Shown here in pieces: positions 8,282 through 38,333 of a DNA stretch of 64,000 bases. The DNA is from an uncultured virus (IMG/VR IMGVR_UViG_3300025769_000088) (Duplodnaviria > Heunggongvirae > Uroviricota > Caudoviricetes). The stretch lies in the IMG/VR virus record IMGVR_UViG_3300025769_000088, one strand, 5' to 3'. A program made the position numbers and the translations under genes. Within the stretch, counting starts at the first letter, position 1. Every line of letters begins with the position of its first letter. The notes beneath the pieces were generated by a model, which was not told the origin of the DNA, did no database searches, and saw nothing but the letters and a program-made list of their open reading frames with translations.

Positions 8282-8310
8282 CGCGTCTCTCCTGTCAGGG
8301 ATGCGGGATA

Positions 8311-8344
8311 AAAGCCCAGGAAAGTTCCACCTTCCCTGGGCTTT
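8311..8344 (-). terminator. Hairpin AAAGCCCAGG...CCTGGGCTTT
   Basis: Inverted repeat between 8360 and 8281. Confidence 0.6.
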
Positions 8345-8359
8345 GTTTGTCCCTGCATT

Positions 8360-8929
8360 CTACGCCTGCGAGACGATAATCTCCACTCCGCTAGCTCGCA
8401 CTGACTCGAAGCTGGTGAACTTCACAGTCCGCCAGATCACCTGGTCTTCGGTTCCCTGACGAGACGACGTTGACTTCTTCGGCAGGTAGTCGACCAGCTC
8501 AGCAGCATCGATTGGCTGACCGTCCTGCAGGTACTCAACGCTCTGGACGCCCAGCACTCGCAGGTTTGCGTAGAAGGTGTCGCCTGCTTTGTTGGTGCAA
8601 ATCGCAGGCTTGTCTTCGACACGGTCAGCCCAGGCATGGGGCATAGCTTGAAACTCAGGAGACGACCCCTCCTTTTCCAACCTCCTATTAACCCCTCGCT
8701 CGTAGTCGGTGCCAAATGCACAGCTCATGACCGTGCGTTTACTGATTTTCCCCAGAACACAGGGCGACTTGTCCTTCCTACTTCTCTTCAGCATCTTGAC
8801 CGGAGTCTGAATCGTAACTCCCACAATCGTCGATGCCTTGATCTCACTTACCCGAGCCATCAGCTCAGCAGGCGTGACAGTCACACGAGGAACAGCACTC
8901 GCAACAGCAGCATTTGATACGTTAGTCAT
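8360..8929 (-). CDS. Conserved hypothetical phage protein
   Basis: GGAG RBS; first gene after a promoter. Confidence 0.7.
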   Translation of the reverse strand: MTNVSNAAVASAVPRVTVTPAELMARVSEIKASTIVGVTIQTPVKMLKRSRKDKSPCVLGKISKRTVMSCAFGTDYERGVNRRLEKEGSSPEFQAMPHAWADRVEDKPAICTNKAGDTFYANLRVLGVQSVEYLQDGQPIDAAELVDYLPKKSTSSRQGTEDQVIWRTVKFTSFESVRASGVEIIVSQA

Positions 8930-8995
8930 CGCATCGATCTCCAACAGCAGGAACAGCAAACATCAAACGGCCCAAGGCCACAACTCATGAGGCCC

Positions 8996-9024
8996 ATCTT
9001 AGGGCCAGACAACACTCACGTCAA
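8996..9024 (-). promoter_or_regulatory. Sigma70-type promoter TTGACG-N17-TAAGAT, spacer ends CTGGCCC
   Basis: Direct reading. Confidence 0.8.
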
Positions 9025-9045
9025 GCAAGTTTCTAAAAATAATTC

Positions 9046-9327
9046 TCAGCCCGCACAAGTCACGTCGAGCCGCCACGTCATACCTTCTTCGGTGCCAAGG
9101 TCGCAGGCCCAGACATCGACGACGCCGTCGAGTTCAACCCACTCAATGTCAGACTCCTCGTCGAGGCTTTCGAGCATCTCGATGAGGCTCGCACGATCGC
9201 CGTAGAAATCGACCTTGACGATCTCGTTGTGAGAGATCGAACGCTCGACCGCATCGGCCAGGAGCATCTCCAGCTCCTGCTTGAGGTCATCCTGTTTTTC
9301 GTCAGTAGTTCTTGAAGTGAAGGACAT
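9046..9327 (-). CDS. Acidic hypothetical protein
   Basis: GAGGT RBS inside the 61-bp repeat. Confidence 0.7.
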   Translation of the reverse strand: MSFTSRTTDEKQDDLKQELEMLLADAVERSISHNEIVKVDFYGDRASLIEMLESLDEESDIEWVELDGVVDVWACDLGTEEGMTWRLDVTCAG

Positions 9328-9331
9328 GATT

Positions 9332-9392
9332 TACCTCTGATTGTCGGTTGTAATTTTGGAACAAAATTGCCAGCGGCAATCCGATACTTCAA
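9332..9392. repeat. 61-bp intergenic repeat, copy 2
   Basis: 58/61 identical to 7233-7293. Confidence 0.9.
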
Positions 9393-9799
9393 CTTTCTAG
9401 AAGATTGCTGAACGGCTCGTGCCCCTGGAAATCGACACCACGTCCATCGCGACCGATGTGAGAATCATCGTGCCCGGTCAGGACTCCGCCCTTGGCCACA
9501 GCAGTGGCAGGATCGCAGAGAGCGAAGACCTCGTTGTATTCGCGAACCGGGAACCAGGTCTTGACCATGACAGGTCCACCGAAGTCCTCTTCGTTGAGGA
9601 CAAACGAGTGAACGTCCCCACGACTGTCTCGTCCCGAGACGAACACACAGCGGTGACACCGGATTTTACCCAGCATCGCCACGGTGCAGCCGTTGCCCGT
9701 GAAGGACATGCCGTTGGCTGGATGGGCTGTAAGCTCCACGCCGTCACGGCTGAAGTAGATGCGGCCCGTTCCAACTTTTCCGAGTGATGCAGCTTTCAT
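9389..9799 (-). CDS. Hypothetical protein
   Basis: AGGAGATCACTACG-ATG leader after a promoter. Confidence 0.7.
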   Translation of the reverse strand: MKAASLGKVGTGRIYFSRDGVELTAHPANGMSFTGNGCTVAMLGKIRCHRCVFVSGRDSRGDVHSFVLNEEDFGGPVMVKTWFPVREYNEVFALCDPATAVAKGGVLTGHDDSHIGRDGRGVDFQGHEPFSNLLES

Positions 9800-9848
9800 C
9801 GTAGTGATCTCCTGAGGGAGTACAGTTGAACTGGTTACTTCATCGGTC

Positions 9849-9877
9849 AGCTTAGGGCCAGAACTTGAGAGTGTCAA
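9849..9877 (-). promoter_or_regulatory. Sigma70-type promoter TTGACA-N17-TAAGCT, spacer ends CTGGCCC
   Basis: Direct reading. Confidence 0.8.
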
Positions 9878-10014
9878 GCCTTTCTCTCAAACTTTTTCAT
9901 CATTACCCAGATGGCAGTTCTGGTAGGCCCGACCATGTACTCGCAGACCTGAAGAAAAAGGGCCAGATTCGAAAAGTTTTTCAAATCCGGCCCCGGAAGC
10001 AAACCCGCCGAGGA

Positions 10015-11190
10015 TCATCTCCGCAGAATCAAGTTCATCAAGCACAGAACTTTTTGTTCCTGCAAAAGATTGCAGACGTCGCTCGCCAGGATGATGTGAT
10101 GCGCGAGCCGAGAGCAGATTTCTTCCCGCACCAGCGTACCGCCGGTCACCGGATCGCATTCCTTCAGATGCCACTCCCCGTCACGATCGCACGAGAGGTA
10201 ACAATCGACGATCTCCGGGCCTGTCTCTAAAAGACGACCCTTTCCACTAAACCAGGATTGAACCTCTTCCAGCAGCCGCTCACGCAGCCTAATCATGTGC
10301 TTCCGCAGGTTCTTCTCGCAATCTTCCAGTCCGAGCTGCAGATTGTCGCCCATCAACTTCAAAACAGCATCGCCGTAGCCGTAGTCGACACCGACCAGCA
10401 ACTCTCGCAGGTACTCGTTGCCTTGCTTCTGCAGGTGCTCGGAGAGCGTGGATGGAGCAGGGGCAGGCACCTTGACCACCTTGGCACCGAAGGTCTTGAC
10501 GACGTCCGCCACAAAGTTGTTTTGACCACCAACGATCGCCGAGTGTGCAGGCACCTCTGGCTGAGGACCATTCACGAAACCCGCATCGTAATTATCGACG
10601 GTCGTCGTCTCGGACTTGTGCGTCGGTTCAACCGCCAGCTTCGCATTCTCCTGCTTCTGCCACAGGGCTACGCAGCCGAGCAGGTAGGCATAGAGCCTCG
10701 GCTCTGCGGTCTTCAGATCGATCGCTCGATCGCTCTGCAGCATCTGTAGGTGCAGTGCATCCCAGAATCCGCAGGCAGGTGCCGTGGCGGCTCCCCAGTC
10801 GAACGCAGCCATCAGATGCTTCGCCTGATGTGCTCCAGTCATCCCTGCCAGTCCATGTACGGTGCCAATGACACATTCCACCTCAAACACATCGAATCCC
10901 CCAGGCAGCTCACTGGGGACTTCTAACGGCACACGAGTCTCCGGCGGTGGCTCCGGAGAATCCTTTTCTAAATCGAGTTCTTTATCTTCCCGCATGTCCC
11001 ATTCCTCTTTCAGTGAGTCGTTGTAAGCCACGAGCACCGCAGCATCTTCGTGCTTCTCCCACGGCTCTTTGCGAATCGTGTTGATCGGACCTGGCCTGCA
11101 GAAGTTAGGAGAGACCTGCTCGCCTTTCGCGAACTCCACATAGTCATCCTCATCCACCGACAGGCAGAAGAATTTCTCAAGCCATCCCAT
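10015..11190 (-). CDS. Hypothetical protein, 391 aa
   Basis: Long ORF, GGAGG RBS. Confidence 0.75.
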   Translation of the reverse strand: MGWLEKFFCLSVDEDDYVEFAKGEQVSPNFCRPGPINTIRKEPWEKHEDAAVLVAYNDSLKEEWDMREDKELDLEKDSPEPPPETRVPLEVPSELPGGFDVFEVECVIGTVHGLAGMTGAHQAKHLMAAFDWGAATAPACGFWDALHLQMLQSDRAIDLKTAEPRLYAYLLGCVALWQKQENAKLAVEPTHKSETTTVDNYDAGFVNGPQPEVPAHSAIVGGQNNFVADVVKTFGAKVVKVPAPAPSTLSEHLQKQGNEYLRELLVGVDYGYGDAVLKLMGDNLQLGLEDCEKNLRKHMIRLRERLLEEVQSWFSGKGRLLETGPEIVDCYLSCDRDGEWHLKECDPVTGGTLVREEICSRLAHHIILASDVCNLLQEQKVLCLMNLILRR

Positions 11191-11191
11191 C

Positions 11192-11719
11192 TCACATCAC
11201 CTCCTTGAAACTGGTCAGCCGCCACTGGTCAACAGGCTTCACAACACCGTTTGACGAGCTGAATAAATGAAACGACGTAACAACCATCCGACCCCACTGA
11301 TGGCCGTTGTGCTTGTCCCTGAACGCGAGCATCTCTTTGTAGGCAGCACTCTCTCCACGCATGTCACTCGGTGCTGAGATGACCGTCATGTGTGGCGTGT
11401 AGTTGCGGTCAGGAACCTTCCCGCCTTTCCGCAGATGCGCGTTGAGAATCTTCAACTTCCCAGCCCCCTGGGCTACCGGCAGGACCAGATGAGTTGTCTG
11501 CTGATTGCGAAAGATTCGCACCCCTTCGATCGAGATTTCGAACGGTTGACAACTGTCGCCGACATCCTGAAACCGTTCGGTGTCTGGACGTTGTTTGCCC
11601 AAATGACACAGCGTGATGTGCGGCGTTCTGGGATGCTCTTCTGCGGAGATCGACTCCGCGAGTGACTTGATGATCGTTTTGAATTCTTCGCTTGCGGCGA
11701 TGCCGATGAAATAACCCAT
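11192..11719 (-). CDS. 2H phosphoesterase (LigT / 2'-5' RNA ligase-like)
   Basis: Two HxT motifs, PHITL and PHMTV, about 75 aa apart. Confidence 0.85.
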   Translation of the reverse strand: MGYFIGIAASEEFKTIIKSLAESISAEEHPRTPHITLCHLGKQRPDTERFQDVGDSCQPFEISIEGVRIFRNQQTTHLVLPVAQGAGKLKILNAHLRKGGKVPDRNYTPHMTVISAPSDMRGESAAYKEMLAFRDKHNGHQWGRMVVTSFHLFSSSNGVVKPVDQWRLTSFKEVM

Positions 11720-11774
11720 GCTGTTCCTCGTGTGGTTGTGATTTTTCTTTACAAAATTTCAAGCAGACGAACCT

Positions 11775-12383
11775 TCACCCTTTCAAAGCTTCCTGCACAT
11801 CTCGCAACTTCAACAACGCATCCTGAAACAGCGTACCGATGGACGGAACATTATCTCCTCTGGAGATGAGCTGAGTACTCGACGTAGCCGGAGTCTGCAG
11901 CTCCATAACCATCTCACGAGACGAATCCTGTTCGTACGGAATGTGCTCGTACCGACGAGAGAACTTCAGCGAGACTTCATGCTTCGCTGCCCAGCAGGCG
12001 AGGCTGTATGTCTGCTTGTCGGCAGCTCGCTGCTCGTGCACCGTGTCCTTCAGAGATTTAATCTGAGCGACCTGCTGCTTGATCAGCTTCTGATCACTCT
12101 CCGCCTTCACCTGCATGCCAACGATGTGAGATTCCAGGTCTGTGATTCGATCGGCAGCCATCTGCTCGGCAGAACGAATCGATCGCTTCGCCGCCGCCTC
12201 AGAACTGAAGACCGGATAATCAACGAGACGTTGATACGAGTAGACGTTGTCCACTCGCCAGGCGTTGCCGTCTTCGATCATGCCTTGAGGATCGATCTGC
12301 CACAGATCAGTCTGCGGCGTGATGTACTCGCCGTCTGCGGTCTTTTCGAGTTGTGAGAGAATCTCTTCGTCTGTGAATGACAT
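11775..12383 (-). CDS. Hypothetical coiled-coil protein
   Basis: AGGAACAGCCAG-ATG leader. Confidence 0.7.
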   Translation of the reverse strand: MSFTDEEILSQLEKTADGEYITPQTDLWQIDPQGMIEDGNAWRVDNVYSYQRLVDYPVFSSEAAAKRSIRSAEQMAADRITDLESHIVGMQVKAESDQKLIKQQVAQIKSLKDTVHEQRAADKQTYSLACWAAKHEVSLKFSRRYEHIPYEQDSSREMVMELQTPATSSTQLISRGDNVPSIGTLFQDALLKLRDVQEALKG

Positions 12384-12393
12384 CTGGCTGTTC

Positions 12394-12615
12394 CTATTGA
12401 TCGAGGTCTTCGAGTGATTGATCTTCGTGGAGATACTTTCCGTTGTGTCGTCGATCGACCCCCTTGGGCCGCAAGGCAGGTCGGTTCTCCCCCCTCTGAC
12501 ATTTCAGACAAACCGTTCGCCAGGTTTTGCAGTTGCAGCTGATGCAACGGCTCTCCGAAAGTTCTGGCAGACGGAAGTGATTAACGTCAGACATGTGTTC
12601 GATGACCTTTGTCAT
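12394..12615 (-). CDS. Small Cys-containing hypothetical protein
   Basis: ORF in operon. Confidence 0.5.
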   Translation of the reverse strand: MTKVIEHMSDVNHFRLPELSESRCISCNCKTWRTVCLKCQRGENRPALRPKGVDRRHNGKYLHEDQSLEDLDQ

Positions 12616-12943
12616 CCAAGTAGTAAGACGCGAGTCGCGGATGAGGGTATCCGTAGTGCTCCAGGTTCAAATCAGTGATCCATGTCGCAAGCTTCTTGAA
12701 GCCACGTTTGTTGGGAATGTCTTTCTGCGTCCGACTAAGCTCCTGGGTCCAGCAGTGCTTCTCTTTGTCGTAGCCGCTGAGCCTGGCGATCTCAACCCGC
12801 ATCAGACGGAAGTCGACCCGGTAAACTGTGCGCAGGTCTTTCTCCATGTCGTCGATGAAGATGTCCAGGTCATGGCTCGTCGCCATGAAGTGTCCCGCCT
12901 TCTGTAATAGGACCAGAATCTCGTTGTACGTCATGGTCAGCAT
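12587..12943 (-). CDS. Hypothetical protein
   Basis: GGAG RBS. Confidence 0.65.
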   Translation of the reverse strand: MLTMTYNEILVLLQKAGHFMATSHDLDIFIDDMEKDLRTVYRVDFRLMRVEIARLSGYDKEKHCWTQELSRTQKDIPNKRGFKKLATWITDLNLEHYGYPHPRLASYYLDDKGHRTHV

Positions 12944-13448
12944 CGGAATCTCCCAGCTCTAGCTCTGTCGCCAGCTCTTCTGCCGTACGCAGCACAAATG
13001 CAATGGTCGAAGGATTTAGTCGACCTTCTCCGAAGTGAATGGTTGCTGTTTTTATCGCTCTTTGAATTATTTCTGAAGGAGTTACTTTGACTAATGTCGT
13101 CTCAGAGAAAGGCTGTCTGCCAAACATCCTTTCGAATTCTTCGATTCCTCGAATCGTCCAGAAACTGTCGTAGAAAACAGCTCTCTGAGATTGAATCCAT
13201 ATCCACATTGCTTCAGGGTCATTTACGTTGGGAGCTTCTCTGTGGCACCTCTTGCAGAGCAGCACGAGATTCTCAGGAATGTCTTCTCCGCCCAAAGATT
13301 CAGGAATTATGTGGCAACGATCTAACGCTGCTTTGTACGCACATCTCCAGCAACGCTCATGTGCGTCTGTCCAATCTACGCTGACATGACACTCGTCTTT
13401 TACATGGGACCAGTGCCAAACAATGTCAAGCAGAGTCGTCTTCGGCAT
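12870..13448 (-). CDS. HNH endonuclease
   Basis: CWRC...RCHIIPESLGG.D.PENLVLLCKRCH. Confidence 0.85.
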   Translation of the reverse strand: MPKTTLLDIVWHWSHVKDECHVSVDWTDAHERCWRCAYKAALDRCHIIPESLGGEDIPENLVLLCKRCHREAPNVNDPEAMWIWIQSQRAVFYDSFWTIRGIEEFERMFGRQPFSETTLVKVTPSEIIQRAIKTATIHFGEGRLNPSTIAFVLRTAEELATELELGDSDADHDVQRDSGPITEGGTLHGDEP

Positions 13449-13890
13449 TTAGGCTTCCCAACGTCTTTCCGGTAGGAACCGCCACAGGCTCGACATCCTC
13501 TTCTGCTTCGAGCCATCCACTAACAGTCGGCAGATCGCCGTTCTGAATCTGCCTGCAAACTCTGTCGACGTACGCCGGGCTGAACTGCCACTGCCGACCC
13601 TTGGCATCCAGGTTCTTAACCCAAGAGTCCAGCTTGCGGAGTTGCGAGACAACGACCCAGTACATCTGGTCGTCGTACTCGATGGGAGCAGGCTCCTCAC
13701 CGCTCAGCTCCTGCAGCAAATCCCAGTAACGCTCGGGGGAGAAGACCATCTCACCCTTAGCGATCAGAATGGCCAGGATGTTTCGCTGCAGCTCCAGCAT
13801 CGCATCGAGAGCCTGCTTCGCCGCGCGTTGATGATTGACACGCTTTTTGATCAGCCGTTTTTTCCGCTTCTGCTTTTTTTCAAAGCTCAT
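13426..13890 (-). CDS. Hypothetical protein (start MSFEKK)
   Basis: ATGA overlap with the upstream small gene. Confidence 0.65.
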   Translation of the reverse strand: MSFEKKQKRKKRLIKKRVNHQRAAKQALDAMLELQRNILAILIAKGEMVFSPERYWDLLQELSGEEPAPIEYDDQMYWVVVSQLRKLDSWVKNLDAKGRQWQFSPAYVDRVCRQIQNGDLPTVSGWLEAEEDVEPVAVPTGKTLGSLNAEDDSA

Positions 13891-14045
13891 TTGAAAATCC
13901 TTCGATTGTTTTGTTTCTCTCGTCGTTCCCACTCTTCGCGATACACCCGATCGTTCTCTTCGAGAACCGCATTCGCTTGAGAGACAAGCAGCATGAAAAA
14001 TCCCACTGCTGCGATCAGCATTCCGCCGTAGATGAAAGCTCCCAT
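13887..14045 (-). CDS. Small membrane protein
   Basis: GAGG RBS; single hydrophobic segment followed by a charged tail. Confidence 0.6.
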   Translation of the reverse strand: MGAFIYGGMLIAAVGFFMLLVSQANAVLEENDRVYREEWERREKQNNRRIFK

Positions 14046-14103
14046 TGCATTTCCTCTGATTGTTGGAGAGTTTTTGGTACAAAAAGTTTTCAGCAATCAG
14101 AAA

Positions 14104-14544
14104 CTACAGGGAGTACGCCACGCACCCTGACTGACAACCGAGGAATCCGCACTCAGGACAGCAGGTCACCTCAGTGCCTGGGTCCGGCATCATCTTCGTC
14201 CACTGCGAGTTCTGCTCGACGACAATGAAGTCAGTGAGGTTATGCAGCTCAGTATCGAACGTGTGAACGGTGACGACTTCGCCGCCAACGACGGAAACGT
14301 CATGCGTCTTCACGAACTCGTGCAGAGTCGTGCCGGTACGATCCGGAAGCAGGTCGATAAGCACTTCCAGGCAGCACTGTGCGCGGAAGATGTCGCCTCG
14401 GTCGAGGCTGTGCAGGATTTCCTGCCGAACTTCCTTGCGGCTCGCAGTGAGCAGGAAGTTGTGAATGTTGCTTCGCAACTGTCGCTGATCCTTCGTCTGC
14501 AGCAGTGTAATTTCCGGCTGAGCGTTTTCGTTGAAAGAAACCAT
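14104..14544 (-). CDS. Hypothetical protein with C-terminal Cys cluster
   Basis: GGAG RBS before MVSFN. Confidence 0.65.
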   Translation of the reverse strand: MVSFNENAQPEITLLQTKDQRQLRSNIHNFLLTASRKEVRQEILHSLDRGDIFRAQCCLEVLIDLLPDRTGTTLHEFVKTHDVSVVGGEVVTVHTFDTELHNLTDFIVVEQNSQWTKMMPDPGTEVTCCPECGFLGCQSGCVAYSL

Positions 14545-14659
14545 CTCGAATCTCCACAGGTAAAGGCTGGTCACCAAGTTTGTTGCGTCTCTTATGATGT
14601 TGAGTGTATCGTCCATAGGGCCAGCGTCAATCCACTATCTGGTCCTATTTCAGAAAGTT

Positions 14660-15019
14660 TCAGGAATTGACTGCTCTTTTTCTGACAGGCGTCGTCAGAG
14701 CTTTTTCCAGTTCCCAACCACGATGCAGTCGCACGCTCAACACCGACCGACTCATTCCCATCTCGCGAGCCCAGGCACTCAAGGACTGCGTCCGACCGTC
14801 ATATGTGAGCAGCGTCCGAGCGTTGAAACCTTCCACTTGACGAGAGCATCCGCAGCTTTTGGTATTTCCGTGTTTCAGACACACTCCACGCACCGTGACA
14901 GCTTTCCCGCAATCACACCTGCACTTCCAATGTGTAAATGGCGATCCGTCTTTCGGAGTCGCTTCGCCGATTACTGTCAAGCTTCCGAATCGTTGGCCTT
15001 TAAGTGTTAATTTTTTCAT
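14660..15019 (-). CDS. Nuclease-less HNH-family derivative (Cys-rich module fused directly to HTH-like module)
   Basis: GQRFGSLTV...WKCRCDCG...TKSCGC then LTYDGRTQSLSAWAREMG...RL.RGW..EKALTTP; the central HNH is absent. Confidence 0.8.
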   Translation of the reverse strand: MKKLTLKGQRFGSLTVIGEATPKDGSPFTHWKCRCDCGKAVTVRGVCLKHGNTKSCGCSRQVEGFNARTLLTYDGRTQSLSAWAREMGMSRSVLSVRLHRGWELEKALTTPVRKRAVNS

Positions 15020-15147
15020 CGTGTTGCTTTCAATAATTCGACAGTCCAGTCGATGAGGATGTTTCCAATGGCAGCCAAAGCCACCAGGCCCAGGAAGGTC
15101 AGCCCTGTCAGTGAGACAGCGACCATGATCCAACTGAGATATTTCAT
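15016..15147 (-). CDS. Small membrane protein, 43 aa (MKYLSWIMVAVSLTGLTFLGLVALAAIG...), below the ORF-track cutoff
   Basis: ATGA overlap with 15019; one transmembrane segment. Confidence 0.55.
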   Translation of the reverse strand: MKYLSWIMVAVSLTGLTFLGLVALAAIGNILIDWTVELLKATR

Positions 15148-15209
15148 CACCCTGCCTTTCTAAGTCAGGAGTCCTGAGAGAACCGCCCCTGGTGACCAAC
15201 AGCCACTTT

Positions 15210-15358
15210 AGCTGCCGGACGTCGCAGGGAATCTTCCGGGTTTTCCCCGGATGTTTTATCTCGCCTTGTAGCTCCGCTCTCCGTCGAGACCGGCACCCAG
15301 CAAACAGTTTGCAACCTGCCTGCTGATCCCACTGCGAGCCCAGGTCACACCCTGGGTT
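15210..15358 (-). ncRNA. Candidate structured RNA (multibranch fold with possible pseudoknot)
   Basis: Five or six complementary segment pairs; mismatches read as G-U only on the minus strand. Confidence 0.45.
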
Positions 15359-15373
15359 AGAACTACGGCACTC

Positions 15374-15634
15374 TCAAGACTCCTGTCTCACAAATCCGAT
15401 CCCAGGAATGCACCGATACAGCATCACTCGCGGCACACCGTATCTGTCATTCCACTTGTAAAATTCCTGCATGTAAAATCTGGCAGCTTTTTCGTCTCGC
15501 CACGTCTCAATCGGTTTTCCGTCCCAGGAAAAAATCCACCACTCGTTGCCCTGATTGTCGATCGTTGTCGACTGGTTCCAGAGACGAACTTTTTTAAGCA
15601 TTGGCCCTTCGTGGGACATTCTCACAGCAGCCAC
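15374..15634 (-). CDS. Hypothetical protein (true start may be at 15601)
   Basis: ORF in operon. Confidence 0.55.
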   Translation of the reverse strand: MAAVRMSHEGPMLKKVRLWNQSTTIDNQGNEWWIFSWDGKPIETWRDEKAARFYMQEFYKWNDRYGVPRVMLYRCIPGIGFVRQES

Positions 15635-15885
15635 CTTTCTCCACAGCTCATGCAGTTTGCGAAGTCACTGTTGTCAGCAGCGACTTCGGACCCGACTTCG
15701 CTGCAGGTTGGGCAAGGTCTGTTGACATAGGTGTCCGCAGGCGGACCCTGGGCCTCAAGAAACGCTTCGAGCAGAATGCATGCGGCACGCTCCGCCTGCT
15801 TCAGTGTCATGGCATCAGGACCATGCTCGTGGATAAAGTTGTTGATCTCGCGTTTCAGCGAGGTGATCTTGTCGTCGTCCATCAC
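15622..15885 (-). CDS. Hypothetical protein with C-terminal Zn ribbon (CPTC...CMSC)
   Basis: Cys pairs; gene overlaps. Confidence 0.65.
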   Translation of the reverse strand: MMDDDKITSLKREINNFIHEHGPDAMTLKQAERAACILLEAFLEAQGPPADTYVNRPCPTCSEVGSEVAADNSDFANCMSCGERWLL

Positions 15886-16061
15886 AGTTTCCCCCGGCTT
15901 GCCTGGATTCGAATGTCATCAATCTGCTTCAACATGTCGGCACACTTCGTCAGGCTGAAGCCTGTCTGCCGCTGAATGTCCTGCGGATGCAGGAAGTCGC
16001 CGTCCGTCAGGTCGAGCACCAACTGCTTCAGGGCAGTGATCTGAATGTCTTTATCGGTCAT
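15882..16061 (-). CDS. Small hypothetical protein
   Basis: ORF in operon. Confidence 0.55.
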   Translation of the reverse strand: MTDKDIQITALKQLVLDLTDGDFLHPQDIQRQTGFSLTKCADMLKQIDDIRIQASRGKL

Positions 16062-16071
16062 TGGACTTCTT

Positions 16072-16347
16072 TCAATTATCAAACAGCTCATCGATTTCAG
16101 TAATCAGCCACTCGCGCATCTCTGCAGGCTGCATGTCGCCGAGCCGCTGTACAACATTGATTCCTCGCCAGAACAGTCGCCACTCGATCTCGTCAGTCAT
16201 CAGGACGACACGCTCCGCCTGCCAGCTCTGCACCGAGCGATAAATCTGCTTACCTTTGTGCAGAGCCATGCCTTTCGATGGCCCCGTCTCTTTCCAGAGC
16301 ACGAAGTTGTCGGCGATTTCAGAGGCTGATGTTCTTGGACGTCCCAT
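16072..16347 (-). CDS. Hypothetical protein
   Basis: GAGG RBS. Confidence 0.65.
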   Translation of the reverse strand: MGRPRTSASEIADNFVLWKETGPSKGMALHKGKQIYRSVQSWQAERVVLMTDEIEWRLFWRGINVVQRLGDMQPAEMREWLITEIDELFDN

Positions 16348-16356
16348 CTTAAATCC

Positions 16357-16809
16357 TCATTCTCCGTCGTAAGATACGCCTTGCAGTAAAGTCAGTTTTT
16401 CTTCGCCGTCATTTCCGTCTTTGGCAGCTTCGAGGTCGTCCCCCATCTGTTCGCAAGCCGCAACACGGGCTTCCAACAGCTCACCTGTTGGACCCATCTG
16501 AAGACCTTCTGGCATGTTATTGAAGGATTCGTCGGCAGCATCTCGCAACGCTTCAACGCGACTCACAAGATCGTTGATAAGGTCGTCGGCACCCTCACCT
16601 CCCAAGTCCTCCTGGGACATGTCTTCGACTTCTTCAATGATCGAATACATCTCTGAAAGAAACTCAGAACGAGTCAACTGTGAGGCTCGTGGTCGAGTTC
16701 TGCTGTAGCTCTTCGAGCTGTAGGCAAATTGCCACCAATAGTAAGGCTCGCCTTTTTTGACGGCAGGATTATCTTTACGGGCTTTTTGGACGTAGTTGAC
16801 TCGTGGCAT
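16357..16809 (-). CDS. Conserved hypothetical phage protein (KKGEPYYWW...NMPEGLQ.GPTG)
   Basis: AGGAGTCACTGCG-ATG leader; familiar phage hypothetical motif. Confidence 0.75.
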   Translation of the reverse strand: MPRVNYVQKARKDNPAVKKGEPYYWWQFAYSSKSYSRTRPRASQLTRSEFLSEMYSIIEEVEDMSQEDLGGEGADDLINDLVSRVEALRDAADESFNNMPEGLQMGPTGELLEARVAACEQMGDDLEAAKDGNDGEEKLTLLQGVSYDGE

Positions 16810-16841
16810 CGCAGTGACTCCTGGGTTAGTTGTTTCAGAAA

Positions 16842-17020
16842 GAAAAGAGCGAGCAGGGAACTCCGGGTTTCGAACCCGGTTTCCTCAAACTCTTAGCTGC
16901 CCGTTTACTTTGAGGATATCACTCAAAGTAGAAAGCCACCTTGCGTACGACTCGGTATAGCCTTCGACAGTCAGGGGGGATGCACGATGCCAAACCGTCC
17001 AGTTCCCTGCTCGCCCTTTC
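16842..17020 (-). ncRNA. About 180-nt RNA with a tRNA-like domain (acceptor-like stem plus T-arm) and a long insert
   Basis: 14-bp perfect closing stem GCGAGCAGGGAACT; T-arm CCGGG-TTCGAAA-CCCGG abutting its 3' strand; fills the intergenic gap. Confidence 0.6.
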
Positions 17021-17022
17021 CT

Positions 17023-17214
17023 CTACTTGTCGCCGAAACCGCATCGGCAACCCTTAACGCAGGTCTTGATTCCTGCTTTGTTGTTCTTCATGAATTTGAC
17101 ATGTGCCCAGTCGACACATCGCATGCAGAAGCAGTCCACACCAAACTGATCGAAAGTCTTCTGATCGATCTGATGATGCTTTCCGCAGTCAGGGCAGGTC
17201 GCGTTCTTCATCAC
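17023..17214 (-). CDS. Small Cys-rich protein
   Basis: CAACTAACCCAGGAG leader; CPDC, CMRC. Confidence 0.65.
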   Translation of the reverse strand: MMKNATCPDCGKHHQIDQKTFDQFGVDCFCMRCVDWAHVKFMKNNKAGIKTCVKGCRCGFGDK

Positions 17215-21363: not shown

Positions 21364-21438
21364 TGACTCCGGCAGGTGTCGAACCTGCACTGACACGGAT
21401 TAATGTTCCCGCCGCTCTGCCAATTAAGCTACGGAGTC
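21364..21438 (-). tRNA. tRNA-like gene with aberrant anticodon arm (identity undetermined)
   Basis: Acceptor GACTCCG/CGGAGTC, D-arm GCTT-AATTGGCA-GAGC, T-arm GCAGG-TTCGACA-CCTGC; anticodon loop AACATTAA is 8 nt and lacks U33. Confidence 0.75.
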
Positions 21439-24872: not shown

Positions 24873-25287
24873 TCGATAATTCCTTTATCTTCTTTAAGAG
24901 TCGGTCACCGTCAAATCCTTCGCTCATGTAAAGAATCGCTCTGCCTTTCAGTTCTTCTCTGGTCAGAGTCCCCACCACCTCAGCCGCTACGGCACCGTGC
25001 AGCAGTAGCCATTCGCGATGAACACGAAGCAGCCAGTAACATTGACCGCCTCGGTGATGATGCATCCTCGCCCATGCTCGTTGCTGCAGCGTGTAGTGAT
25101 CCAGTCGGACCTTTGTCGTCGGTCTGACGGGCCACGCATCCAGCTTCTTCAACTCAATCCAGCCGCCAATGTAAGCAATGTCAGGAGTCCCTGGGTGGAC
25201 CGGATTCTCGACGGCAAAGGCATGCAATGACTTCAATGCCTTGACGACGTCTTTCCGATCCTTGCCTTCTGACTTGGTCTTCCTCAT
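24844..25287 (-). CDS. PD-(D/E)XK nuclease, VRR-NUC / Holliday-junction-resolvase-like
   Basis: GTPDI...WIELK...Q..W. Confidence 0.8.
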   Translation of the reverse strand: MRKTKSEGKDRKDVVKALKSLHAFAVENPVHPGTPDIAYIGGWIELKKLDAWPVRPTTKVRLDHYTLQQRAWARMHHHRGGQCYWLLRVHREWLLLHGAVAAEVVGTLTREELKGRAILYMSEGFDGDRLLKKIKELSNAGRHTGSP

Positions 25288-25598
25288 TACAGCCTGCCTG
25301 CCAACTTCGTGAACTCTTGGTCTCGATCTTTTCTGCCTTCGGCATTTTCAGAATACGTGACGTGAAAGCTGGCTCCTCGTATGTCTACGAAAAATATGCA
25401 GGGGATTTGTCGACCGGCTTGCTGCTTATCGTCCTTCCAGAACCGGGCAATGTCATCCAGCACGATACCTTGACGATTATTGAACAACATTGATTCGCTA
25501 CTCACTGTAATTTCTCCAAAAGCTTTCAACACGAACGGGTTTCTTCTTCGCAGAACTGGAGTTGGCTTGCGTCGTGACGTCGTGACGTTCCCAGCCAA
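25287..25598 (-). CDS. Hypothetical protein (start uncertain)
   Basis: TAATG overlap with the downstream gene; overlaps the MTase 3' end. Confidence 0.45.
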   Translation of the reverse strand: MAGNVTTSRRKPTPVLRRRNPFVLKAFGEITVSSESMLFNNRQGIVLDDIARFWKDDKQQAGRQIPCIFFVDIRGASFHVTYSENAEGRKDRDQEFTKLAGRL

Positions 25599-26349
25599 AT
25601 ATCTCTGCAGCGTTGTCGTACGGCTCGCACAGGTATCCGGACAGCAGGAACTTTCCCTTGAACTTGCCCAGGTAGGTCAGGAGTTTGGCATGGTCCGCTT
25701 CGGACATCTCATGCTCGTAATCTCCGGCCACGCGAGTCGAAGGATGATAGGGAGGATCGAGATAAGCGAAAGCGGACGGCTTCGAGAATGCTCTCAGTAC
25801 TGACAGGGCAGGTCTGGAGTAGACCATGGTCCTGCTCAGCCGGTGAATGCACTCTTCGAGACCGTCGATGGCGGACAGCCAGGCGGACGTCTGCTCGTTT
25901 CCTTTACGCCGAGTCCTGGTGCAGGTCGGAGTCGCAAAGTCTTTCCCCAGAGCCTGCCGAGACATGCGATACTTGACGAAGAACGCCCAGGCCCTGCCGA
26001 CTCTGCCGTGCAGATCAGGGCTGCCGGACAGCGCGTAGTTGAAGTCAGACTCGTGGAACGGAGTCAGCCTCAGCTGCTCCAACAGCTCTTCTTTCTGCGA
26101 CGATCTCAGCACCCGGTAGAAGTTGATCAGCTCTTCGTTGATGTCGTTAATGACCTCGGCCACACCAGGACAGTCGTCGACATGGTCAGGTGGAACGACT
26201 CCGCAGTGAGGACAGGTCCAGTCCCAGTACTCGTTGATCGCTCCGGCAAACGGGATGATCCTGGTCACGTATTGTGCCGGAGCCAGTTCCCAGATTTTCT
26301 TGCGGAGGTAATGTTTCCCACCATGATATTTCAGGGGAGCCGTTGTCAT
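25498..26349 (-). CDS. D12-class (Dam-like) N6-adenine DNA methyltransferase
   Basis: LKYHGGK, PFAG, EVINDIN..L.NFY.VL, YLDPPY. Confidence 0.9.
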   Translation of the reverse strand: MTTAPLKYHGGKHYLRKKIWELAPAQYVTRIIPFAGAINEYWDWTCPHCGVVPPDHVDDCPGVAEVINDINEELINFYRVLRSSQKEELLEQLRLTPFHESDFNYALSGSPDLHGRVGRAWAFFVKYRMSRQALGKDFATPTCTRTRRKGNEQTSAWLSAIDGLEECIHRLSRTMVYSRPALSVLRAFSKPSAFAYLDPPYHPSTRVAGDYEHEMSEADHAKLLTYLGKFKGKFLLSGYLCEPYDNAAEIFGWERHDVTTQANSSSAKKKPVRVESFWRNYSE

Positions 26350-26382
26350 CTCAGTGTGCCTGTGTGAGTGTTTTGATTCGAC

Positions 26383-26417
26383 AAAAAAGGGCCAGAGCAT
26401 GGCTGCTCTGGCCCTTT
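26383..26417 (-). terminator. Intrinsic terminator after csrA
   Basis: AAAGGGCCAGAGC / GCTCTGGCCCTTT stem followed by a T-run on the minus strand. Confidence 0.75.
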
Positions 26418-26435
26418 CCATGGGTGACCAAACCC

Positions 26436-26612
26436 CTACTGCTGCTCGCGCTCTTTGGACTCTCGCACCTCTCGCCGGTCAATGGCTATGTTTCGTGGAG
26501 CCTCAATTCCCAAACGGACCTGCCCGTTGGTTCGGTTGACTCCCACGACTTTGATGACGATGTTGTCGCCAATCAGAATGTCTTCGTCTTCTTCTCGCGT
26601 CAGCACCAGCAT
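26436..26612 (-). CDS. csrA: Carbon storage regulator CsrA/RsmA homologue, 58 aa (absent from the ORF track)
   Basis: MLVLTREEDEDILIGDNIVIKVVGVNRTNGQVRLGIEAPRNIAIDRREVRESKEREQQ; GGAGG RBS. Confidence 0.9.
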   Translation of the reverse strand: MLVLTREEDEDILIGDNIVIKVVGVNRTNGQVRLGIEAPRNIAIDRREVRESKEREQQ

Positions 26613-26635
26613 CTTACATCCTCCGTGAAAACAAC

Positions 26636-26695
26636 AAAAGAAAAACCAGCCTGCGTCACCTCGGAGTCACTACAAACCTGATTCCGCAGGCTGGT
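26636..26695 (-). terminator. Terminator-like hairpin with a 29-nt loop, upstream of csrA
   Basis: 11-bp perfect stem ACCAGCCTGCG/CGCAGGCTGGT followed by TTTTCTTTT. Confidence 0.65.
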
Positions 26696-26811
26696 CGTCT
26701 CGGATTCCAAGAAACGATTTCAAAAACCACCCGAAGGCATTCTGCAATAACAGAAGAATCGGACTGGTGTCTGAGCACGAACTCAGAATTTCTCACCCGA
26801 CAAGGTGAGAG

Positions 26812-26880
26812 TGGAGCGACAGGATTCGAACCTGAATTTCCCCGCGAGGCGGGGCGACTTATCCGTTAGTCGATGGCTCC
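26812..26880 (-). tRNA. Degenerate tRNA-like element (CTC at the arm apex, collapsed anticodon loop)
   Basis: GGAGC/GCTCC acceptor, D-arm GACT-AACGGATA-AGTC, CCCCGC-CTC-GCGGGG, CAGG-TTCGAAT-CCTG. Confidence 0.65.
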
Positions 26881-26889
26881 TGACGCCTG

Positions 26890-27174
26890 CTATCTGCATC
26901 CTCGAAGCCTGCGTCCGAGGTTGTATCCCCACTGGTAGCTGGGAGAGTACCTGTTGACGTACCCGTAATTGGAGTACTGCGGAGCGTACCGATTGATTCC
27001 GAGAGCGTAGTCGGTTCGGTTGTATGCTTGGGAGTAGTCGCGGGAGTAGACGGCCTGCGGATACTGGTACGCAGGCTGAACGTAAACATAACGACCGTGC
27101 TGCCACACGACGTCTGCATTGCAGACGGCAGGCATCAGGGCCACAGCAGCAATCAACATCAACAGAGTTCTCAT
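26890..27174 (-). CDS. Small secreted Tyr-rich protein
   Basis: AGGAG RBS; signal peptide MRTLLMLIAAVALMPAVCNA; Y/Q/R-rich mature part. Confidence 0.75.
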   Translation of the reverse strand: MRTLLMLIAAVALMPAVCNADVVWQHGRYVYVQPAYQYPQAVYSRDYSQAYNRTDYALGINRYAPQYSNYGYVNRYSPSYQWGYNLGRRLRGCR

Positions 27175-27221
27175 CAGTCTTCTCCTGGTCAAAGTGAAGT
27201 GAAATAAGCAGCTTTGCAAAG

Positions 27222-27250
27222 AGCATAGGGCCATGGGAGTTGTGTGTCAA
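27222..27250 (-). promoter_or_regulatory. Sigma70-type promoter TTGACA-N17-TATGCT, spacer ends ATGGCCC
   Basis: Direct reading. Confidence 0.8.
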
Positions 27251-27482
27251 GTTCCGATTGAGAATTTTCTTGTTAGATAATTACGTCGGAATTATCCATC
27301 GCAGAGAATCAGTAGTTATGTTGCAAAGTGCCGGTTACCAGCGTCCGGCGATGATGTTTAGCCTCATCGGTTTACAGCAGCCCTGATGTGCTCAGTGCCA
27401 CTCACACGGCGCGTCACGCTTCCGACTCAGATTTAGTCGGAATGGGCCACTGATTTTGGGCGTTCTGTCAGTAATAGGGTCG

Positions 27483-28016
27483 TTATGCCGTCTTCGGCAC
27501 TTTCATGAACGTCACCCATATTGTCTTGCCTGTCTTCCCTGTGAAGTCACCGAATAGTGGCTCAACTGGAAATTCCCGCAGCAATTCCTTTGCTTTTATG
27601 TTGGCTTCGTTCCACTTGAAAACCAGCACTCCGAAGTCATCAAGCACACGCCAGCACTCTGAGAAACCGGCGACAATATCCGCCTTCCATGTTTCCTTGT
27701 TGAGTAATCCATACTTCATGTTAATCACACTCTTCTCGCTGCCAGAAGTTAAATGCGGCGGGTCAAATACAACCATTTTGAAGGTCTTGTCTTCGTAAGG
27801 CATGTTTCTAAAATCATGGATTCCATCAGGCTTTACACACCATCCAGGATTCCAGTTATTTTTGAATGCCCCTTTTTCAACCTCCCTTCTATCTGCAAAA
27901 AAGGCGTTTTCGTTTTCTTTGTTCCACCAAAACATTCTCCCGCCACAACAGGCATCGAGAATGGGCGGCATAACAAGTCGGTCAACCGGAGTTGCCGTCG
28001 TCGCGTTTTCTGTCAT
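27483..28016 (-). CDS. SAM-dependent methyltransferase, probable DNA amino-MTase
   Basis: ILDACCGGRMFW (motif I), DFRNMP, VVFDPPH (motif IV-like), LVFKW.E. Confidence 0.85.
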   Translation of the reverse strand: MTENATTATPVDRLVMPPILDACCGGRMFWWNKENENAFFADRREVEKGAFKNNWNPGWCVKPDGIHDFRNMPYEDKTFKMVVFDPPHLTSGSEKSVINMKYGLLNKETWKADIVAGFSECWRVLDDFGVLVFKWNEANIKAKELLREFPVEPLFGDFTGKTGKTIWVTFMKVPKTA

Positions 28017-28068
28017 CAAAAGTCCCTCCCGGTTACCCGGTTACCCGGTTACCCGGTTACCTTAATCG
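27483..28068 (+). mobile_element. Integron-type gene cassette (G/TTATGC ... GCATAAC-attC-G/TT)
   Basis: Cassette start TTATGC is the exact complement of its own R'' GCATAA; lower GC than flanks. Confidence 0.75.
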
Positions 28069-28074
28069 TTATCT
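27968..28074 (+). other. attC recombination site
   Basis: R'' GCATAAC, 5-bp spacer, L'' GGT[C]AAC-CGG[A], L' CCG-GTTACC, 6-bp spacer, R' GTTATCT; the extrahelical bases read G and T on the bottom strand. Confidence 0.75.
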
Positions 28075-28237
28075 GGATTGTCCTGCGATTATATCTTTGT
28101 CTGCTTTTCGGCACCATTCACTCCAAGTTGTTATCCAACACCTCTTGTTTGTGACATTTTCCGTCTGGTAGCGGACATCCTTGCCAATTCGCTCAATAAC
28201 AGTTCTCGTTCTAGTGCCCTTGATTATTGCCGGGGCG

Positions 28238-30253
28238 TTATTTTATCTCACCCCAATTCGGCCCGATTTCTACGTCAACCACACTCGGCACACGCAGCGG
28301 AGCACACTCTCGCATGATCTCTGCCAACTCGTCTGCCTCTTTCCGTTCGTAGATTGTCAGGTCCAGCTCATCGTGAACCTGAATGCCGACCTTGATTCCA
28401 TTCTCGTAGGCTTCCACCAGAGCCATCTTCGTCTGATCGGCTGCCGAGCCTTGAATCAATTTGTTGAGTGCCTTGTACCCGTCCAGATAGTTGCCGGTCC
28501 AAATCTGCGGACCCCCATCAGGGTTGTCTTTCATTTCCTTCGGGAAATGACAGTGACGACCGAGCAGCGTCTTGATGTAGCCCTTCGAAAGACCTTGCTC
28601 TTCAGCGATCTCCGCCAGCTTGTCAACGTACGGCGCACCCTTCTTGAAAGCATCCAGGATCGCCTTCGCTTCCGGACCTGCCGTCTCATATTTCTGACCC
28701 TTACGTTCTCCAAAGTCGTACTCTTTGACGACAGTCGGTAAGCCCAAGGAACGGGCGAACTTTGCGCCGCCCATGCGATAGCATTTGCCGAGGTAAATCA
28801 CCTTCGCAATCTTCCGCTTCAATCCAGTCAGGTCAGCCATCATCTGATGGTTGTCACACTTCGGATCGTCCCGATACTTCTGAGCAGCCGCCCTCGCCCC
28901 TGGGCAACCGCACATCTCAGCATAATGATGCAGAATCCTGGGCTCTTGTTGCGAGTAGTCGAGACAGGCCCATTCACCACCCTCGTCAGGGACGTAGACC
29001 TGTCGCCACATGAGGCTCAGGTGATCCTCTACGTGCATGGTGTCAGGGTCTGTGTCTTTTGGCGAAGGCTGCTGCTGGATGTTGACATGCGACGAGCTGA
29101 GCCGTCCTGTGGCAGCTCCTGTCTGCCCCTTACCCCCGCCCGTCTTCTCGCCTTTCAATTGATGGAAAGTGCAGTGCAATCGATCACCGATCGCATGTTC
29201 TCGAATACCGGCAATGAAGTCTCGCCGGACCTTGTTGACCTTTCGTGCCGTCAGAATCGCATCGGCCACAGGATGCTTGAGTTTTCTCAACACCGACTGG
29301 TCGATGTTGTATTGATCGTTCTTGACGTTGCGTTTCAACTTCGCACCGATTTGCTGCAGAGGCTTCGCCACAGCATTCGGCTGAGCCAAATCATCAGCAG
29401 ACAATCGGATGCCCGTCTGCTGATGCACCAAGGCCAACGCCACCTCTTCCTGGGCAAGAATCCACTCCTCAATTTTCGACATCTTATCGAAGTCGATACG
29501 GACCCCTCGTCGCGTCATGTCAACCAGAGCAGGCAGGCACCGAGACTCCAGTCGGAAAATCTGCCACAGATCATTGTCGTCAATGATTCGTTCCTGTTTC
29601 CGCATGACACGGCACGGCAACTCGGCGTCCCACTCTCCGTAGGGGCCAACATACTGTGGCGGCAGTTTGTGCAGGTCGCCCTTGGCACTCAGCGGCTTGC
29701 GTTTTCCTTTACCTCGTTTGCCGTTGTGGCTTCCGAACTCATAGGTCACTTCACGCAGCAACGTCTCTTCTTTCTGCGGCAGGCCGTGACGCAGAGCCAC
29801 CGCATCCAGACCAAATTTGAACTGGTTCTCATCAATCAACGGCTCGGCAATCTGCGTGTCGAGAAATGTCTTGACCTTCGGAAAGAGTTCTTTGATTTCC
29901 AGTCCAAACTCCTGGCACAGGTAGTCCAGGTCGTACGCCAGATTGGCTCCGACGATGGACCCTTCGAACTTTTTCAGATTGTCTCGGACGTAGTTCAGTA
30001 CAGGATCGAGTGGCAGGTTCTTTCCGTTGCTGTGACGGATCGGCAAGTAGAAAGAACGGAAGTATTCGAAGTGCAGGCAGAAGCCCACGATCTTTCCGCC
30101 ACGTCGCGCACCTGGACCCAACCCCCTGCCCAGGGACGAGTCGTGTGTTTCTACGTCGGTGCCTACACGCGGAAAGTTATTCCAGTCTGGCAGCTCTTCC
30201 ATCGAGGGAAGTTGCCAGTCGGTCTCTGGTGGGAACAATGTGGTCTGCAGCAT
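28238..30253 (-). CDS. polA: Family A DNA polymerase with 3'-5' exonuclease domain
   Basis: DVET, NLAYD, TGRLSS..NIQQQP, DYSQQEPR, K...LG..Y.MG, IQGSAAD.TK, QVHDE. Confidence 0.95.
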   Translation of the reverse strand: MLQTTLFPPETDWQLPSMEELPDWNNFPRVGTDVETHDSSLGRGLGPGARRGGKIVGFCLHFEYFRSFYLPIRHSNGKNLPLDPVLNYVRDNLKKFEGSIVGANLAYDLDYLCQEFGLEIKELFPKVKTFLDTQIAEPLIDENQFKFGLDAVALRHGLPQKEETLLREVTYEFGSHNGKRGKGKRKPLSAKGDLHKLPPQYVGPYGEWDAELPCRVMRKQERIIDDNDLWQIFRLESRCLPALVDMTRRGVRIDFDKMSKIEEWILAQEEVALALVHQQTGIRLSADDLAQPNAVAKPLQQIGAKLKRNVKNDQYNIDQSVLRKLKHPVADAILTARKVNKVRRDFIAGIREHAIGDRLHCTFHQLKGEKTGGGKGQTGAATGRLSSSHVNIQQQPSPKDTDPDTMHVEDHLSLMWRQVYVPDEGGEWACLDYSQQEPRILHHYAEMCGCPGARAAAQKYRDDPKCDNHQMMADLTGLKRKIAKVIYLGKCYRMGGAKFARSLGLPTVVKEYDFGERKGQKYETAGPEAKAILDAFKKGAPYVDKLAEIAEEQGLSKGYIKTLLGRHCHFPKEMKDNPDGGPQIWTGNYLDGYKALNKLIQGSAADQTKMALVEAYENGIKVGIQVHDELDLTIYERKEADELAEIMRECAPLRVPSVVDVEIGPNWGEIK

Positions 30254-31619: not shown

Positions 31620-32375
31620 TCAACTCCCATGCTCAGGATCGTTTACCGCATGAACAGCCGCCGCGAACCCTCGCGGTGTCAGGCTCCGAATGATTTTTGT
31701 CTTGAGTGAGCTGCCGCCGAGTTTCAGGAACTGCGTCGAGAATCTTCGCGACTCGTCCTGGGCCTGCCACTTGGGAAATGAGATGCGTTGTCCGTCAGGC
31801 ATCACACGAGCAGGTACGACGTCCGGCATGTGGAATCCGTTGCCACACCAGATGCCGGTACGCTTCGGATAGCAGTCTCGCTTGGCAATAAATTCTGGCC
31901 AGTCAGGGTGGACGGATTCCTTACCCTGCAGCATGCCGCCGTATTCCCATGGATGAAATAACCAGTCAGGCTTTCTCCAATGAGTCGACAGGCAGCCAAG
32001 CGGATTCTCAACCATCCAGGGACAGCCGCACGAGTTGCCGAGCCGTTCAGCAAGTCGGCACAGCTCGACTGCCTTCTTCTGGAAGTCAGGGTCAACGGCA
32101 GATTTCTTTGCGAAGTGCTTGGCACCTGACACAGCGAGGTCGGTGCAGGGTGGAAAGGCCAGAATCAGGTCAGGCTTGAGATTGGCGACTTCAGGAAAAG
32201 TCTCAGGCAGCAGCAAATTCCAGTTGTATCTTTCCAATGCCCAATTGGAAGCAGGCTTGAAAGGTATCGACGCTGCAGTCTGGTACAGCTCATCGATCGC
32301 GATCGTCTCGTGACCTGCTTCGAACCACGGCTTCAAAGCGTACGTTGAGAAATCAAACAGGCTAACAACACGCAT
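31620..32375 (-). CDS. Phage C5-cytosine DNA methyltransferase-like protein
   Basis: VSLFD, AFPPCT, VENP, K.T.IW, RSLTP.GFA. Confidence 0.85.
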   Translation of the reverse strand: MRVVSLFDFSTYALKPWFEAGHETIAIDELYQTAASIPFKPASNWALERYNWNLLLPETFPEVANLKPDLILAFPPCTDLAVSGAKHFAKKSAVDPDFQKKAVELCRLAERLGNSCGCPWMVENPLGCLSTHWRKPDWLFHPWEYGGMLQGKESVHPDWPEFIAKRDCYPKRTGIWCGNGFHMPDVVPARVMPDGQRISFPKWQAQDESRRFSTQFLKLGGSSLKTKIIRSLTPRGFAAAVHAVNDPEHGS

Positions 32376-32431
32376 CAAACTCTCCTGGCGGGATTAGAAT
32401 CAGGAGAGAGTATCCGGCCCTATATCTCGCG

Positions 32432-38078: not shown

Positions 38079-38195
38079 AGCCGTAACTCTCCGAAAGAAG
38101 TTTGTGTCGTGATTTTACTTTCCCTGGCTCACGACGGTTACACCGTGGGAACGCGAAGCTTCGCTACTCCTCACCACTGGGTAGGTGACACCAAG

Positions 38196-38254
38196 TGCGG
38201 CAGTAGGAGTCGAACCTACTTATCCCTCTCAGAGTGATCAGCTCTGAGTACCGC
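38196..38254 (-). ncRNA. 59-nt D-armless tRNA-like element
   Basis: GCGGTA/TGCCGC acceptor, CTCAGAG-CTGATCA-CTCTGAG arm, GTAGG-TTCGACT-CCTAC T-arm. Confidence 0.65.
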
Positions 38255-38333
38255 TCCTTCAAAACCTGCTGCAGAACCGTTCTACCCCACGTCGGGCCAG
38301 ATCACAGGGCGACAGCGTTCTGCAGCAGGTGTC

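Follow-up and report, generated by a model that had tools for sequence, protein, structure and literature searches.

A probable integron-type gene cassette, its attC site ahead of a putative DNA methyltransferase gene, in a variable slot of a siphovirus-type phage genome

The window analysed here, a stretch of 64,000 nucleotides of an uncultured virus, comes from a tailed phage of the siphovirus type with almost all of its genes on the - strand. Its structural genes encode a tape measure protein, a central tail fibre, minor tail proteins and a head-tail adaptor, and its other genes include a primase, two helicases, a family A DNA polymerase, a thymidylate synthase and three methyltransferases; the tail, head-tail and replication genes bear out the claim of an earlier note on this DNA that an integron gene cassette is located in a phage. 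A 24-kb fragment of the same phage is also on record (G001). Two of the methyltransferase genes (D12 class, and phrog_757) lie at 25498-26421 (-) and 31620-32378 (-), and the attC model described below gives no match at either. The third lies next to the polymerase gene, whose stop codon marks the start of a variable slot, among the following features.

27320-27481, no strand: gene-free stretch of 162 nt, from the cassette to the point where similarity to the related phage L003 resumes, with an 8-bp hairpin (27420-27442) and a fifth copy of CCGGTTACC
27482-27488, +: left core G/TTATGC (R'-type), crossover predicted between 27482 and 27483
27483-28019, -: SAM-dependent methyltransferase gene, 178 aa from TTG at 28019, likely start ATG at 28016
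27968-28074, + (top strand): attC site, full-length match of covariance model R1, geometry scan R 5/7 and L 7/7
27968-27974, +: R'' GCATAAC, followed by a 5-nt spacer
27980-27987, +: L'' GGTCAACC, with C 27983 bulged
27988-28054, +: variable central part of the attC
28014-28029, -: ribosome site GGAGG and ATG of the methyltransferase gene, in the variable centre of the attC
28028-28061, +: tandem repeat CCCGGTTA, 4.2 copies of an 8-bp unit with 100% matches, containing the L' box in four copies
28055-28061, +: L' GGTTACC, followed by a 6-nt spacer
28068-28074, +: R' GTTATCT, crossover predicted between 28068 and 28069
28194-28243, +: possible remnant of a second attC
28238-30253, -: family A DNA polymerase gene (PF00476, E 3.3e-43)

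The product of the cassette gene is a putative DNA methyltransferase, assigned from its motifs and modelled fold to the amino-methyltransferases of the D/N/S-PP-Y/F/H type. Residues 17-175 match phrog_954 ('DNA methyltransferase', E 1.3e-63); the cassette methyltransferase itself has no Pfam match, and nine of ten aligned homologues match Methyltransf_11 weakly. The SAM-binding motif I (ILDACCGG) and motif IV (FDPPH, of the DPPH form) are invariant in this alignment, in which conservation starts at ILDACCGG (residue 17-20), as the earlier note had expected of homologues. The preceding leaders of 2-36 aa are not conserved, so that the conserved N-terminus of 16 residues that the note had named as evidence against its reading is not seen. 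The predicted structure (pLDDT 67) matches class I SAM methyltransferase folds, M.TaqI included, at TM 0.35-0.46, and a sequence search of solved structures returned no informative relative. The gene is compositionally foreign: its GC content is 46% against 54.3% for the window, a value as low being reached in only 0.9% of equal-sized windows, and its GC3 is 52% against 63-68% in four other genes. No convincing sigma-70 promoter precedes it, and an Rfam search of 25000-30000 found nothing at gathering score, its three matches (E 0.05-0.6) all being well below.

Canonical attC geometry had been claimed for 27968-28074, and every element named in that claim is found in its place, with boxes in the order 7-5-8...7-6-7. 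The L boxes (GGT[C]AACC and GGTTACC) pair at 7/7 positions around the extrahelical base, and the spacers of 5 and 6 nt are those of the aadA1 attC of plasmid R100. The core sites R'' and R' keep AAC and GTT and pair at only 5/7 positions, R'' GCATAAC having one mismatch to RYYYAAC and R' GTTATCT two mismatches to GTTRRRY; genuine attCs near intI also use R'' GCATAAC and R' GTTATGC. On the mRNA the tandem repeat at 28028-28061 corresponds to the 5' leader just before the ribosome site. The 9-mer CCGGTTACC occurs five times in the window against 0.14 expected, and CATAACG, ATAACGCCC and TTGTTATG show no enrichment across the window. The fifth copy of CCGGTTACC (27331-27339) lies 150 nt past the left end of the cassette in a layout that matches neither end of an attC. 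A reading as a tandem repeat with chance inverted repeats, the 45-nt leader being a repeated phage promoter or leader that recurs in L003, was considered and dropped, as attC geometry and model fit both.

Strand and score were calibrated on integrons with an integrase. The polarity reference was the aadA1 attC of R100, which lies on the gene strand and whose top strand is that strand; the reference sample was 80 loci around IntI1-like integrases, of which 393,669 nt upstream of intI genes were scanned. The geometry rule asked for R'' (7 nt), a 5-nt spacer, L'' (8 nt, bulged at its fourth base), L' (7 nt), a 6-nt spacer and R' (7 nt); AAC and GTT were required throughout, and the minimum pairing was 5/7 for R and 6/7 for L; in those 393,669 nt the expected strand yielded 71 sites, of which 56 were unique, and the other strand 4. 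A home-made covariance model, R1, was built from 55 of the 56 unique sites, one dubious site being dropped. R1 matches 27968-28074 on the + strand with 40.1 bits and E 1.7e-6; the E-values come from a shortened calibration, and the geometry rule used to select the training sites is one that the window site also passes. The earlier note had named such a score as a check, and the match falls on exactly the coordinates that it gave. When the window was searched together with 13 phage loci (156,942 nt in all), this was its single match at E <= 10, and with filters off R1 finds no match on the opposite strand at this site. As a control, R1 was applied to phage TJE1, where it gives two + strand matches of 29.5 and 29.8 bits, both below the score of the window site, at the genome start, where the text of Qi et al. 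2023 (PMC9892861) places an attC cluster tested for recombination; these matches are co-oriented with the TJE1 genes, which is the canonical polarity.

The cassette extends from the TT at 27483 to the G at 28068. Its left core lies in a perfect 9-nt inverted repeat with 27966-27974 (9/9), which upholds the claim that the cassette start G/TTATGC is complementary to R''; the left core together with the G of R' is thus complementary to R'' at 9/9 positions, as a cassette that had once been circular, with its closure at R', should show. The GGGTC before the left core resembles the spacer before R' in the attC of the related L003, and the left boundary reads GGGTCGTTAT against GGGGCGTTAT at 28232-28241. 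R1 finds neither an intact attC ending at the left boundary (27482-27488) nor any match in the gene-free stretch of 27320-27481. The gene lies on the bottom strand of the attC, with the attC at its 5' end, so the arrangement is not the classical one of a top-strand gene with a 3' attC. The model puts the top strand opposite the gene, in agreement with the earlier statement that the methyltransferase runs against the usual cassette orientation. That statement had gone on to place the ribosome site, the start and the first 16 codons of the gene inside the attC, and indeed GGAGG (28029-28025), ATG (28016-28014) and the codons MTENATTATPVDRLVM all fall within 27968-28074, the L'' and R'' arms encoding residues of the non-conserved 16-aa leader. 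At the other end, the TAA stop (27485-27483) is, as had been noticed, complementary to the left core, namely to its TTA, the first three bases of the cassette. The opposite polarity, with the attC after the gene, had been suggested by a hairpin of L003; it was given up because both R100, as the reference, and the model make the bottom strand the coding one.

The attC is somewhat decayed: R' is off consensus, L' is expanded fourfold and the probability of the hairpin is low. When the DNA is folded without constraint, neither strand takes up the attC hairpin (z -0.93 for the bottom strand and -0.07 for the top strand). The constrained fold probability of the bottom strand is 0.002, and the 55 real sites have a median of 0.19, a 10th percentile of 0.005 and a minimum of 2e-6; one real site of 112 nt has 0.0018, so that 0.002 is within the range of real sites though below 90% of them. 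The window contains no second intact attC, and the CALIN definition asks for at least two. A possible remnant of a second site at 28194-28243 is weak, scoring 7.3 bits (E 0.5 in 2 kb) when R1 is run without filters; in it, a GTTATTT resembling R' (28237-28243) shares bases with the polymerase stop codon (28240-28238, - strand).

Phages whose polymerases are 82-92% identical to that of the window show the space after this gene to be a variable slot. It is empty (95 nt) in L106 and L109, holds 217 nt without an attC in L004, L105 and L108, and in L003 and L104 carries three other small genes and an attC (5230-5321) with a score of 25.5 bits and a good fold (z -3.3). The similarity of the window to the end of the L004 polymerase gene breaks off right after the TAA. 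L003 retains a 44-nt remnant of the window attC (80% identical), which makes it probable that a common ancestor already had the cassette. L107 equals L003 minus one cassette; the crossover falls within 20 nt of attC centre that the two have in common and not at G/TT, which points to homologous recombination. No clean empty site can be reconstructed from these relatives, since the space is taken up by 217 nt of unrelated sequence in L004 and by 95 nt in L106 and L109. The contig of L106 begins within a slot on the upstream side of the polymerase gene, where relatives carry other genes, and L106 has two strong attC sites upstream of its polymerase. A duplication of the polymerase end, hinted at by a MAFFT alignment, was also considered and dropped, the signal being too weak.

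Sites of the same polarity recur in other phages. Nineteen attC matches (E <= 0.05) in five phage contigs are all inverted relative to the genes; polarity is common within arrays, so that the 19 matches amount to about four independent arrays. They score 25-59 bits on one strand only with a model trained solely on bacterial attCs. L100 has at least 15 matches over 9 kb (8245-17172, to the contig end), all on the - strand; every gene in this array with a PHROG match is on the + strand, and three ORFs on the - strand have no match. The genes of the array are mostly for DNA modification and encode five methyltransferases and PAPS reductase-like, HNH endonuclease, MazG-like and DpdA-like proteins. 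The array adjoins genes for Gam, Bet/RecT and RecE-like proteins, and a polymerase-exonuclease gene is also present in L100. L101, which carries portal and terminase genes, has two methyltransferase genes with an attC ahead of each. L100, L101 and L106 each contain at least two attCs without an integrase, which is how a CALIN is defined. On the coding strand the phage sites start with xxxTAACG, often with the stop codon of the previous gene inside, and end with GTTAxxx, and a ribosome site and start follow within 14-26 nt of each site or lie inside it. The attCs ahead of the homologous methyltransferase genes of L100 and L101 contain GGTAACCGG and TTGACCGAC, both of them L-arm 9-mers of the window attC, and likewise have the ribosome site and ATG in their centre; homologous methyltransferases with homologous attCs imply that gene and attC travelled together. 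Across the 19 phage attCs, in an alignment fitted to the model, which favours high pairing, the paired share of cells is 90.8%, compared with 70% in shuffles, with 0 of 500 shuffles reaching the observed value and controls slid along the sequence giving 25-43%; changes on both sides (compensatory changes) occur in 12 of 20 pairs.

The reading judged probable, its proposed history included, is that 27483-28068 is an integron-type gene cassette of an 'attC-first' design, inserted in a variable slot of a siphovirus at the stop codon of the polymerase gene. On the phage coding strand the order is attC, ribosome site and gene, with the TAA stop fused to the recombination point (AA/C). The data show the identity and polarity of the attC, the cassette boundaries, the phage setting and the recurrence in other phages; the action of an integrase, expression and anti-restriction are inferred. 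An integrase of the IntI type supplied by the host is proposed to have used a GTT-type site at the stop codon of the polymerase gene to insert the cassette, or an array holding it, an event that may be dated to the ancestor shared with the L003 lineage. The methyltransferase gene would be transcribed by read-through from the replication operon, and its product is predicted to methylate phage DNA against host restriction. The site may have decayed afterwards, with later changes in the slot occurring by homologous recombination between attC-derived repeats.

The same observations can be read without an integron integrase. In such an account, attC-derived or convergent hairpins now serve the phage as intergenic modules (leader, ribosome site, RNA hairpin), and accessory genes are swapped by homologous recombination of the phage or the host, much as proposed for PeSL elements. 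The crossover between L107 and L003 within the shared 20-nt attC centre would be expected, and the Gam, Bet/RecT and RecE-like recombination genes beside the L100 array also speak for it. Translation signals inside the sites also fit, as do the searches for an integrase: neither a tyrosine recombinase nor an integrase was found among the scanned ORFs of the window, and the TIGR02249 profile has no match in four related viral records. Modules of this kind do not explain why a model of bacterial attCs matches one strand only, including the bulged base and the 5- and 6-nt spacers that set the strand choice of the integrase, or why the boundaries lie at AA/C beside stop codons; and IntI1 recombined five of six tested attCs from virulent phages in the text of Qi et al. 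2023 (PMC9892861). The account is considered improbable, and insertion as a cassette is preferred.

A second alternative concerns the unity of gene and site, and holds that the methyltransferase gene is native to the phage and that an attC, either solitary or left over from a neighbouring cassette since lost, landed by chance just upstream of it. Cultured phages commonly carry members of the methyltransferase family (251 records, none reaching 60% identity), and of nine distinct homologue loci only two have an attC in their fetched flanks and seven have none. Such a landing would leave unexplained that the stop codon coincides with a core site complementary to R'' at 9/9 positions, that the foreign gene is absent from the same slot in relatives, and that homologous attCs occupy the same position at homologous methyltransferase genes of unrelated phages, and it is considered very unlikely. 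Least credible of all, and hardly worth retaining, is a chance resemblance in which a tandem repeat and short inverted repeats mimic attC geometry: the loose geometry rule does match shuffled windows 1.08 times on average and the fold z-scores are not significant, but the L 7/7 setting matches shuffles only 0.075 times on average, the score is 40.1 bits where apparent noise peaks at about 14 bits across the approximately 310 kb of phage DNA searched, the site stands exactly at the gene start with a matching core at the gene stop, and homologous sites exist in other phages.

Names already exist for single attCs without an integrase, namely 'attG' and 'SALIN'. Classical cassettes such as aadA1 (In2, R100) share with the cassette of the window the box geometry, the bulged L'' base, the AAC and GTT cores, the single gene and a stop codon close to or inside the core; they differ in that the R100 gene is on the top strand with its attC after it and an integron promoter beside intI1, whereas the window has the attC before the gene and neither intI nor attI. 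In sedentary chromosomal integrons, inverted cassettes do exist and are mostly toxin-antitoxin pairs with their own promoters. Like them, the methyltransferase gene is antisense to the top strand of its attC; unlike them, exceptions within bacterial arrays, whole phage arrays are inverted here and apparently read through from phage promoters. PeSL elements, said to have been described by Arbiol and colleagues in 2010, are reportedly mobile regulatory cassettes of T4-type phages that combine a promoter with a stem-loop and act by homologous recombination. The phage sites resemble them as repeated intergenic stem-loop modules that flank small accessory genes in variable phage regions and undergo modular shuffling, but PeSL elements are unrelated to attC, whereas the sites described here match the attC model.

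Clusters of attC sites and methyltransferase cassettes in phages have already been published. In the text of Qi et al. 2023 (PMC9892861), 17 attC clusters and 3 integrons are reported from phages, virulent and temperate, and their cassettes include five methyltransferases, one of the class Methyltransf_11, for which anti-restriction is proposed. The window resembles those phage CALINs in having an attC in a phage genome with no integrase nearby, and differs from them in having one intact site, at least two attCs having been required in that survey (PMC9892861, text). TJE1 and PH101 are given there a typical structure and direction (PMC9892861), whereas the gene of the window is on the bottom strand of its attC and starts inside it. 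The text of that paper (PMC9892861) makes no mention of the inverted design; the words 'reverse' and 'opposite' are absent from it, and it speaks only of 'divergent directions' for one phage. No description of an inverted 'attC-first' design was found in the literature searched, and the variant appears to be new. Cassettes inserted outside integrons, as far as they are presented in a preprint (bioRxiv 10.1101/2022.09.11.507474), offer another likeness: a single cassette, one attC, a GTT boundary and the need for a neighbouring promoter. The window differs from that preprint (bioRxiv 10.1101/2022.09.11.507474) in that the target is a stop codon in a phage operon, the gene is inverted and insertion is a proposal.

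A wider proposal is put forward tentatively, with doubt outweighing confidence: phages may keep a pool of their own 'attC-first' cassettes, in which the gene is on the bottom strand of the attC, AA/C is fused to the TAA stop of the gene before it and the translation signals lie in the attC. Host integron integrases could then drop or swap genes for DNA modification and other anti-defence functions behind any phage gene ending in TAA-C, with the operon unbroken; such genes would be silent in bacterial integrons, and bacteria could also draw cassettes from phage arrays. The usual view of integrons is as devices of bacteria, with cassettes that face one way for reading from a single promoter. If phages hold inverted arrays, integron integrases would shuffle phage counter-defence as well as bacterial defence and resistance genes, and the polarity of a gene would mark the side of the arms race to which its cassette belongs. 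One stretch of DNA would serve at once for recombination, for coding and for the start of translation, which is a constraint so far unconsidered for the evolution of attC, and surveys that demand at least two attCs or the canonical orientation would undercount phage cassettes.

Several other features of the window were recorded. The slot is adjoined by a gene (26890-27234, -) for a small, tyrosine-rich, secreted-looking protein that has no family match and is conserved in all relatives, and just upstream of this gene is a promoter-like TTGACA-17-TATGCT (27250-27222). A CsrA homologue (26436-26612, -; PF02599, E 1.4e-19), two genes downstream of the cassette, is kept in the relatives L003, L004, L106 and L109. 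A 121-nt element at 914-1034 has terminal inverted repeats of about 21 nt (GTAAAACGGTAG...CTACCGTTTTAC) and an internal direct copy of its right arm; it passes the attC geometry rule on both strands, yet has no attC model match. ARAGORN predicts a tRNA-like gene at 21364-21438 (-) whose four-base anticodon is left undetermined (taat), and a normal tRNA-Ile at 38195-38273.
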